Source: a virus. Taken from it: DNA of 45,223 nucleotides. Position numbers: made by a program. This document shows positions 1 through 3,000 of this stretch, piece by piece (position 1 is the stretch's first letter; each line of letters starts with the position of its first letter). The stretch lies in UHGV virus genome UHGV-0196721. The stretch is one strand, 5' to 3'.

Positions 1-3000
1 ATTTTCATGACCCCAATAAAAATATTTATGACTATTGCTGATTTCAAACGGCCTAAATTGGAGCTCCCAAACGGGGCAAACAAACTACTACTGCACTCTT
101 GCTGTGCTCCATGTTCCGGTGAAGTGATGGAGGCGCTTCAGGCCTCGGGAATCGACTACACCATCTTTTTCTACAACCCGAACATTCATCCTCAGAAAGA
201 GTATTTAATTCGTAAGGATGAAAATATTCGCTTTGCTGAACAACACGGCGTGCCGTTTATCGATGCTGATTACGACACCGACAACTGGTTTGAACGTGCC
301 AAAGGAATGGAATGGGAGCCTGAGAGGGGGATCCGTTGTACCATGTGTTTTGACATGCGTTTTGAGCGGACAGCGTTGTACGCTGCTGAAAATGGTTTCA
401 GTGTGATCAGCAGTTCACTGGGCATTTCACGCTGGAAAAATATGCAGCAGGTTAACGAGTGTGGGCGGCGAGCTGTTGCGCATTATCCGGGTATGGTGTA
501 CTGGGATTATAACTGGCGCAAGCAGGGCGGCTCGTCCCGTATGATTGAAATCAGCAAGCGCGAAAAATTCTATCAGCAGGAATATTGTGGCTGTGTGTAT
601 TCTCTGCGCGATACCAATCTACACCGCAAATCTCAGGGACGCCCTCTTATCAAAATTGGCCAACTCCACTACGGAAAAGAAGAGAAGGAGTGATTTTATG
701 GATCACCTTTCTGATTGATTTCATATTGGCGAGGTGACGTGAGTTAAGTAGAATGGCTGCGGGTGCTTGAGGCTATCTGTCTCAGGCATGAACACTGAAA
801 GGCAGATAGAGAAAAGCCCCAGTTAACATTTCGCGTCCTGCAAGACGCTTAACATTAATCTGAGGCCCAATCTATGTCTCACAAATGTAGGTTAGCCTCT
901 TACGTGCCGAAAGGCAAGGGGAAGCAGGCTATGAAGCAGCAAAAGGCGATGTTAATCGCCCTGATCGTCATCTGTTTAACCGTCATAGTGACGGCACTGG
1001 TAACGAGGAAAGACCTCTGCGAGGTACGACTCCGAACCGGCCAGACGGAGGTCGCTGTCTTCACAGCTTACGAACCTGAGGAGTAAGAGACCTGGCGGGG
1101 GAGAAATCCCTCGCCACCTCTGATGTGTCAGGCATCCTCAACGCACCCGCACTTAACCCGCTTCGGCGGGTTTTGTTTTTTTCTGGCATTCTGGTTTACA
1201 ATTCGCACGTCAGCCTGAACACCTGACACCTGCTGCGCCAGCAGAGAAAACAGATGGCGCACAAAACCAAATTTCACAATTCTGATACCGACCTTGCCAT
1301 CCGGCATGGGCGGCGTTCACACGCATTTAAAACTGACTGGTACCAACACCCACCATGTACTGAAGAACAGGCCGAATGGCTAATTCATAACTACCGCAGA
1401 CGCGGATACGAGATTAAGAAAGCCCTCAGCCTCGATTATCGTCACTGGATAATCTCCGTCAGGCTTCCTTACTCTGAACGCCCACCGCGTCCGTCCCGCA
1501 CATTCCAGCAACGCATCTGGAGGTAACGTGCGGGTATTACTTCGACCTGTTCTGGTACCGGAACTCGGGCTGGTGATCGTTAAGCCGGGCCGTGAATCCA
1601 TGCCGGTATTCCACAATACCCGGGTACTGGTGGAGCCGGAACCGAAAAGCATGCGTAATCTGCCGTCCGGGGTCGTTCCTGCCGTTCGCCAGCCGCTGGC
1701 GGAGGATAAATCATTACTGCCATTTTTCAGCGACGAACGAGTGATTCGTGCTGCTGGTGGCGCTGGCGCATTGTCTGACTGGTTACTGCGCCATGTTAAA
1801 TCCTGCCAGTGGCCACACGGCGATTATCACCACAGTGAAACCGTCATTCACCGTTATGGTACCGGCGCAATGGTGTTGTGCTGGCACTGCGACAACCAGC
1901 TGCGCGACCAGACCTCCGAATCACTCGGGCAACTTGCTCACCAAAACCTGTCTGCATGGATGATTGACGTCATACGCCATGCAATGAATGGCTCGCAGGA
2001 GCGGGAATTATCGCTGGCTGAATTATCCTGGTGGGCGGTCCGCAATCAGGTGGCGGACGCGCTACCGGAAGCGGTATTACGTCGTTCGCTGGGGTTGCGT
2101 GCGGAAAAAATCCGCTCAATGTACCGTGAAAGCGACATCGTACCGGGAGAGCAGACCGCCACCAGCATACTGAAGCAGCGCACAAAAAATCTTGCGCCGC
2201 TGCCTCACGCCCACCAGCAAAACCCGCCACAGGAAAAGACGGTGGTCAGCATTGCCGTTGATCCGGAGTCACCGGCTCAGTATCTCCAGCGCCAGAAATC
2301 ACAACGGGAAGAGATGCCTGTATACACGCGTTGGGTAAAAACGCAGAAATGCATGACGTGTGGCAATCAGGCAGATGATCCGCATCACATCATTGGTCAT
2401 GGACTGGGAGGGATGGGAACAAAGGCTGATGATTTGTTTGTTATTCCGCTGTGCCGTAAATGCCATAGCGAACTACACGCCGGGGTAAAAGATTTTGAAG
2501 AAAAACACGGCAGCCAGCTGTTGTTGCTGATTCGTTTTTTAATGCACGCGAGAAATTCGGGTGTTCTGAAGTGGAAAGCATAAATGACTGAACGCATAGA
2601 ATTTGTTTTGCCTTACCCGCCAACGGTGAACACTTACTGGCGACGTCGTGGCAGCACATATTTTGTATCAAAAGTCGGTGAGCGTTATCGCCGTGATGTG
2701 GCGCTTATTGTTCGCCAGCAGCAACTGAAATTAAACCTGTCCGGAAGGCCGGCAATAGAAATTATTGCAGAGCCACCGGATAAGCGCCGTCGTGACCTGG
2801 ACAATATCCTGAAGGCACCACTGGATGTACTGACGCATGCGGGGCTGCTCATAGACGACGAGCAGTTTGATGAAATTAATATTGTGCGCGGTCAGCTTGT
2901 TCCTGGTGGGCGGTTGGGGATAAAAATCACAGAACTGGAGTGCGCATGAATAACCAGTATTTACAGTTTGTTCGTGAGCAACTCATGATTGCCACCGCCG

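Follow-up and report, generated by a model that had tools for sequence, protein, structure and literature searches.

The first gene of the virus genome UHGV-0196721, a stretch of 45,223 nucleotides that we refer to as the window and that proves to be a complete lambdoid phage genome, encodes an intact and genuine member of the QueH (DUF208) family of epoxyqueuosine reductases. We think it probable, with a likelihood of roughly three in four, that this gene is a working, cobalamin-independent queH that a lambdoid phage captured from another enterobacterium and now carries as an accessory "moron" gene, and that it would give its host B12-independent queuosine; this reading is built on comparison of sequences and predicted structures. 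The enzyme family, its chemistry and the RefSeq name of the protein are already public, and what is gained here is the context of the gene and a hypothesis for its role. A literature search found no published description of a phage-borne QueH.

The QueH protein

The open reading frame (ORF) runs uninterrupted on the + strand from position 7 to 693 and could encode 228 amino acids (AAs). Its product matches Pfam family PF02677 (QueH) over profile positions 1–174 of 175 with an E-value of 1.1e-65 and 221.5 bits, the curated cut-off of the family being 23.5 bits. The initial annotation had placed the ORF in this family from its CCAPC motif, and the hidden Markov model search supports that placement decisively. 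Residues 27–203 also match the solved QueH of Thermotoga maritima (7lc5, E-value 7.8e-22), and the T. maritima QueH structures (PDB 7LC5, 7LC7 and 9DEU) are the only solved relatives of the window protein.

We aligned 35 sequences: the window protein, T. maritima QueH and a further 33 full-length sequences, each 35–72% identical to the window protein, chosen among the 4775 family representatives that reached E ≤0.001. Of the alignment columns 14 are invariant and 15 nearly so, and the window protein keeps every one of them. In the numbering of the 221 AA protein (see below) the invariant residues are Cys25, Cys26, Asn52, Tyr59, Arg62, Glu99, Arg103, Cys104, Cys107, Lys137, Gln184, Cys187, Gly188 and Cys189, so that all six invariant cysteines are present, as is Cys29 of the near-invariant column in the CCAPC motif. 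These seven cysteines lie in three motifs on the + strand: CCAPC at positions 100–114 (Cys25, Cys26 and Cys29), CTMC at 337–348 (Cys104 and Cys107) and CGC at 586–594 (Cys187 and Cys189, with Gly188 between them). Cys25 and Cys26 align with Cys9 and Cys10 of T. maritima QueH, the CTMC pair with its Cys87 and Cys90, and the CGC pair with its Cys169 and Cys171. Cys29 is at least 90% conserved among the 35 diverse sequences and is the family majority state, whereas T. maritima QueH has Asp13 at that position. The only other cysteine of the window protein, the non-family Cys145, is a serine in one queH allele, as would be expected if it is not a ligand. The presumed metal ligands of QueH are the conserved residues of CC(x)P(C/D), CxxC and CGC; the discovery and structure papers on the family reportedly describe an iron-sulfur cluster with an adjacent iron ion in place of cobalamin.

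The predicted fold agrees with these assignments. Close homologues were aligned as input for an AlphaFold model; the model has a predicted local distance difference test score (pLDDT) of 75.8 and a predicted template modelling score (pTM) of 0.76, and its five best Foldseek matches in the PDB are all T. maritima QueH (E-values 5e-11 to 1e-8, template modelling scores by target 0.75–0.78). The next best are iron-sulfur tRNA thiolases of the TtuA-type PP-loop group, at an E-value of about 3e-5. A model made from the single sequence had a pLDDT of only 38 and was discarded in favor of the alignment-based model. The window protein and T. maritima QueH thus share the full-length domain, the invariant cysteines and other invariant residues, the fold (as predicted) and, by prediction, the reaction, conversion of epoxyqueuosine to queuosine at position 34 of tRNA without cobalamin. 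They differ in that they are only about 33% identical, that the window protein has a C-terminal tail of about 25 residues which is common to its close proteobacterial relatives, and that it is encoded by a phage whereas the T. maritima gene is chromosomal.

Two ATG codons could start the gene. The longest ORF begins at position 7, and the RefSeq coding sequence on identical DNA in strains 4/1-1 and CE10 begins at the second ATG, position 28. Because of that RefSeq call, and because named QueH homologues are mostly 214–222 AAs long, the start at 28 is favored; the most likely queH coding sequence is therefore 28–693 on the + strand, which encodes 221 AAs plus the stop and contains the Pfam QueH domain.

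The window as a complete phage genome

At about 45.2 kb, the window contains the whole genome of a temperate lambdoid phage in circularly permuted form. In a near-identical prophage of strain CE10 window base 45223 is directly joined to base 1 (bases 20520 and 20521 of that locus, L003), and the DNA that precedes queH in that prophage matches the final 3.5 kb of the window at 100% identity. No terminal direct repeat of 8–399 bases is present in the window. Across the circular junction, the true upstream neighbor of queH is a DUF977 gene (44636–45076, + strand; Pfam E-value 9e-28), the last gene of the replication module, from which queH is separated by a spacer of 174 nucleotides (nt). The initial annotation had left room for the window to start in host DNA; instead the genome closes on itself, with DUF977 in the upstream position.

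Downstream, the initial annotation had named hok, DUF968 and rusA as neighbors of queH, and each has a significant Pfam match: Hok/gef at 874–1086 on the + strand (1.6e-22), DUF968 at 1528–2583 (6.9e-64) and RusA at 2584–2949 (1.4e-13). These are followed by the antiterminator Q gene (2940–3635, 1.4e-83) and an N6/N4 DNA methylase gene (4197–5246, 2.7e-44). The window also carries lysis, terminase, head and tail genes, an integrase gene (35188–36213, − strand), a repressor gene of the S24-peptidase family (40810–41148, − strand) and, at 41608–45076, a module that encodes YdaT, a helix-turn-helix replication protein, a DnaC/IstB-like ATPase, DUF1627 and DUF977.

Distribution of queH

The 700 bp queH region is present in 995 of 5426 complete Escherichia coli genomes (18%) and absent from the other 82%. 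It occupies 1017 places, 1014 of them chromosomal and three on plasmids; phage-plasmids or errors of assembly might account for these three. Of the 995 carrier genomes, 985 contain at least 80% of the 700-base query, a stretch that covers queH, and every listed E. coli record bears the RefSeq name "epoxyqueuosine reductase QueH". The alleles that we examined across the range of identity are all intact and all lie within lambdoid prophages: 100% identical copies in prophages at the ompW site, a 97.4% identical copy in a Qin-like prophage of strain 7/2, a 93.6% identical copy in a Qin-like prophage of E. coli B REL606 (NC_012967.1, 1620376–1621041) and a 90.7% identical copy in a Rac-like prophage beside trkG in strain ST70. 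We note that the REL606 gene is intact in a decayed prophage where it stands amid pseudogenes.

Among viral sequences, 190 stretches in IMG/VR encode a relative, and the 80 loci kept from these all have the identical protein. In a tblastn search of 50,697 GenBank phage records, in which short unannotated "Bacteriophage sp." fragments and oversized phage-labelled records were discounted, HannyBb is the sole isolated phage with a close copy (95%), and the gene is annotated there as "hypothetical". The first 3 kb of the window match 102 phage records, of which the best-ranked share the hok-DUF968-rusA stretch, and only the match of HannyBb extends into queH.

The reading that queH is a core gene of the host, caught in a window that begins in host DNA, is refuted by these results. 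The gene is missing from 82% of complete E. coli genomes, phage genes flank it on both sides in every context seen, and the window closes across a circular junction as a complete phage genome. The comparison of prophages with chromosomes that the initial annotation had called for thus comes out on the side of the phage, since queH is not core and every examined E. coli context is a lambdoid prophage.

The cobalamin-dependent reductase gene queG (yjeS), by comparison, is found in all 5426 complete E. coli genomes, and hence in every genome that carries queH. Since queG is universal in this set, queH is an accessory second copy of a host function.

Selection and origin

Among five queH alleles the ratio of nonsynonymous to synonymous substitution rates (dN/dS) is 0.05–0.09, with dS as high as 0.45, which indicates strong purifying selection on the QueH protein. 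This bears on the possibility that queH is a neutral hitch-hiker, a gene of no role that persists because it is linked to the replication module. The linkage is indeed tight, as a DUF977 homologue ends no more than 1.6 kb upstream of queH in all 81 related loci with enough sequence, and such a reading would also fit a host that already has QueG and a gene for which a simple scan detected no promoter of its own. Against it stand the low dN/dS at substantial dS, the intact ORF in every allele examined, including that of REL606 amid its pseudogenes, and the 985 of 995 carriers that hold at least 80% of the query. We regard neutral carriage as quite unlikely.

The nearest relatives outside this group of alleles are 78–90% identical. 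Named, full-length relatives at 78–86% are QueH proteins of Erwinia, Gibbsiella, Photorhabdus, Providencia, Proteus, Ewingella, Sodalis and others, and they clearly belong to the same orthologous group as the window protein. The contexts of four relatives were examined and all are ordinary chromosomal, non-phage ones: the Providencia gene lies near homologues of tmcA, purC and bamC (by Pfam domains), the Photorhabdus gene beside a BenE-family gene, a third, in another genome, near homologues of dcm and vsr, and a 90% identical copy on an assembly contig beside a gene for a LysR regulator. In E. coli, then, each copy that we looked at belongs to a prophage and is accessory, whereas the four relatives lie in chromosomal surroundings. 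By this comparison, a lambdoid phage most likely captured a housekeeping queH gene from the chromosome of another enterobacterium.

Predicted function

We propose that the phage QueH would act on epoxyqueuosine (oQ) at position 34 of the Asp, Asn, His and Tyr tRNAs of the host and reduce it to queuosine. It would do so with an iron-sulfur cluster and a nearby iron ion and without cobalamin, and the last step of queuosine synthesis would be freed from the supply of B12, whether in a lysogen or during phage growth. Queuosine tunes how codons for Asn, Asp, His and Tyr are decoded, and of its synthetic steps in E. coli only the last requires a vitamin that the species is unable to make; oQ is said, in older work, to accumulate when B12 is missing. 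Because QueG needs cobalamin and E. coli cannot make it, a cell that expresses queH would be expected to complete queuosine regardless of B12, and could benefit where B12 is limiting. QueG, which is one of the few cobamide-dependent enzymes of E. coli (PMC11841063), acts on the same tRNAs and catalyzes the same reaction as is predicted for the phage protein, but it belongs to an unrelated, cobalamin-requiring family (PMC11841063) and is encoded by a core gene, whereas queH is accessory. The preceding genes of the pathway, tgt and queA, are established in E. coli (PMC5372724). In Shewanella, phage infection is reported to raise queuosine at the expense of oQ through induction of queG (preprint 10.64898/2026.03.05.709803), which makes a reductase supplied by the phage itself a reasonable hypothesis.

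The initial annotation had suggested that QueH, in a phage with three tRNA genes, might serve to manipulate host translation or act in a deazaguanine-related pathway. The three tRNA genes are indeed present (5296–5545, + strand, by ARAGORN and RefSeq), with anticodons CAU, UCG (Arg) and UCU (Arg); the first is called Met(CAT) by ARAGORN and tRNA-Ile by RefSeq, and we take it to be of the lysidine-modified type. Queuosine is made only in tRNAs with GUN anticodons, those for Asp, Asn, His and Tyr (PMC5372724). As none of the three phage anticodons is GUN, the phage tRNAs are not QueH substrates, and a functional link of queH to them is rejected on this ground. Their proximity is equally uninformative about function, because they lie 4.6 kb from queH, beyond the antiterminator Q gene in the late region. 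As a set they fit the rare codons ATA, AGA, AGG and CGA, which the phage uses at 5–7 per 1000 each. Manipulation of host translation is plausible in the narrower sense of completing queuosine on the tRNAs of the host.

A role in a deazaguanine DNA pathway is unsupported. The specific form of this proposal is that queH belongs to a Dpd-like system of 7-deazaguanine DNA modification that shields phage DNA from restriction; QueH does act in the queuosine/7-deazaguanine pathway, and some phages do carry deazaguanine in their DNA (PMC6884629). On this 45 kb phage, however, the RefSeq annotation of the near-identical CE10 prophage and Pfam scans, including scans of ORFs that RefSeq does not cover, reveal no DpdA/TGT-like enzyme and no homologue of the preQ0-synthesis genes FolE, QueD, QueE and QueC or of QueF. 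In addition, QueH acts after QueA, on oQ that is already bound to tRNA, and we know of no epoxyqueuosine in DNA. A survey of viruses with deazaguanine genes found no QueA, QueG or QueH homologues among those analyzed (PMC6884629). DNA modification is very improbable and, in our judgement, close to refuted.

A different possibility is that the phage has repurposed the QueH fold for another substrate or for a role in conflict, canonical conversion of oQ to queuosine being secondary; it might, for example, act on a deazaguanine or epoxide compound outside tRNA, or change tRNA modification so as to evade or trigger a host defense. The slot that queH occupies holds candidate Kiwa, restriction-modification or toxin-antitoxin genes, or hok/sok, elsewhere (see below), queH duplicates a function for which all 5426 genomes have queG, and conversion of oQ to queuosine is reported to be regulated when phage infects Shewanella (preprint 10.64898/2026.03.05.709803), all of which would suit such a role. 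On the other hand, the 78–90% identity to chromosomal QueH proteins of Enterobacterales and the retention of every family-invariant residue argue for unchanged chemistry and substrate, and no partner gene travels with queH, as its constant neighbor DUF977 also occurs in related phages that have no queH. We therefore consider repurposing unlikely, and continue to favor a reductase that acts on oQ in host tRNA.

Several observations weigh against a queH that is expressed and of use to its carrier, or are at least not what it would lead one to expect. A scan of the protein against NCBIfam returned no matching model, so the RefSeq name presumably comes from another kind of rule. No obvious Shine-Dalgarno sequence precedes either candidate ATG (7 or 28). 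The intergenic region upstream of the gene (45077–45223 and on into 1–27, + strand) was examined on the identical stretch of the CE10 locus; a simple consensus scan, which is weak evidence either way, found no σ70-like promoter on the + strand there, the same weak scan found no terminator between queH and hok, and an upstream search for Rfam RNAs, preQ1 riboswitches among them, had no match. The predicted RNA fold of this region is unremarkable (z −1.18). With no promoter, terminator or riboswitch of its own recognized, it is uncertain that a lysogen would express queH; for a gene that showed no such promoter, transcription along with the early rightward operon is the plainest expectation, and we infer that this is probably the case. 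Nor does phage codon usage give any hint of queuosine dependence, as NAU makes up a fraction of 0.56 of the queuosine-decoded codons across the phage, with values of 0.54 for early and 0.58 for late genes. To our knowledge no functional difference between tRNAs that carry oQ and those that carry queuosine has been established, and we know of no decoding signature of the contrast between the two. In one study deletion of queG had no effect on growth (PMC11841063).

It is possible, although we would rate it at rather less than an even chance, that lambdoid phages spread the B12-independent reductase as a form of lysogenic conversion, such that about one fifth of E. coli strains would complete queuosine without cobalamin and the others would stall at oQ. 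Those that complete it would include the E. coli B/BL21 lineage; K-12 presumably has no QueH, and the BL21 expression strains are, we assume, of the same lineage as REL606, so B and K-12 strains may differ in the B12 dependence of their tRNA queuosine. If 18% of strains do have, on a phage, a replacement that needs no B12, the modification status of tRNA would differ between strains in a way that has gone unchecked, and the difference could alter translation of NAU and NAC codons, stress or biofilm traits, or phage yield. Carriage of queH would also offer a genetic handle on whether oQ and queuosine differ functionally. If the proposal is right, this would be the first queuosine-specific step of tRNA modification shown to be supplied by a phage, and the presence of queH on a phage corrects the impression left by the survey in which viruses with deazaguanine genes had no queuosine-specific ones (PMC6884629).

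The queH slot and neighboring genes

The queH gene occupies an accessory "moron" slot between the replication module, which ends with DUF977, and the hok/nin region. The gap between DUF977 and queH falls in the 150–199 nt bin in 74 of the 81 loci mentioned above, and 52 of 79 loci have hok no more than 250 nt downstream of queH. In related phages that lack queH, similarity to the window starts only near position 741. The right border of the slot is a hok/sok module (761–1172, + strand) made up of sok (761–936; Rfam RF01794, 120.5 bits), the mok/hok ORF (874–1086) and a terminator-like hairpin (1155–1172). A weak Rfam match to isrK, an Hfq-binding small RNA, at 1095–1176 (21615–21696 of locus L003) scores 27 bits against a gathering score of 50 (E-value 0.0025); it overlaps the hok terminator hairpin and is probably only the terminator.

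The downstream side of queH, and with it the contents of the slot, varies among related loci. Two of them (L009 and L016) have a C5 cytosine methyltransferase gene with a 337 AA partner, possibly a restriction enzyme, and another (L005) has two small ORFs that resemble toxin-antitoxin genes of the ParE/RelE type, these readings having been made by eye from the sequences. Insertion sequence elements are present in the slot in L016, L019 and L081. In strain 7/2 (L087) it contains a two-gene cassette, the second gene of which is KwaB-like according to RefSeq and which we take to be Kiwa, and in PPompW_132418 (L095), an ompW-site phage of the O157 set that has no queH, it contains two hypothetical genes and the adhesin gene paa/adfO. 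These lambdoid morons (paa/adfO, hok/sok and the putative Kiwa and restriction-modification cassettes) thus use the same slot as queH, after DUF977 and before hok-DUF968-rusA-Q, but they are virulence, defense or addiction genes, whereas queH encodes a housekeeping tRNA-modification enzyme. In the lineage of alleles at 93–95% identity DUF977 and queH are separated by a truncated methyltransferase gene (6741–6926 of L085, REL606; 7768–7974 of L002, HannyBb), which may be a scar of the entry of queH into the slot.

Near-identical phages sit beside ompW in strains 4/1-1 and CE10. The integrase region of the window (34697–36465) has no match in the otherwise near-identical CE10 prophage, and for this reason the window phage probably uses an attachment site other than that of the ompW-integrated prophage.

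Two further genes of the window may be noted. Downstream of the antiterminator Q and tRNA genes, at 6520–8373 on the + strand, is a gene for a 617 AA carbohydrate esterase of the SASA family with DUF1737 and DUF6645 domains; we take this to be the position at which Stx phages carry stx and nanS-p, and the RefSeq annotation of the near-identical CE10 prophage contains no toxin gene. An outer-membrane protein of the Ail/Lom family is encoded at 31338–31937 on the + strand (by RefSeq on the CE10 prophage, whose DNA is 95% identical here), flanked by the tail tip gene J and the gene for the tail fiber; lom is a classic moron of phage λ.

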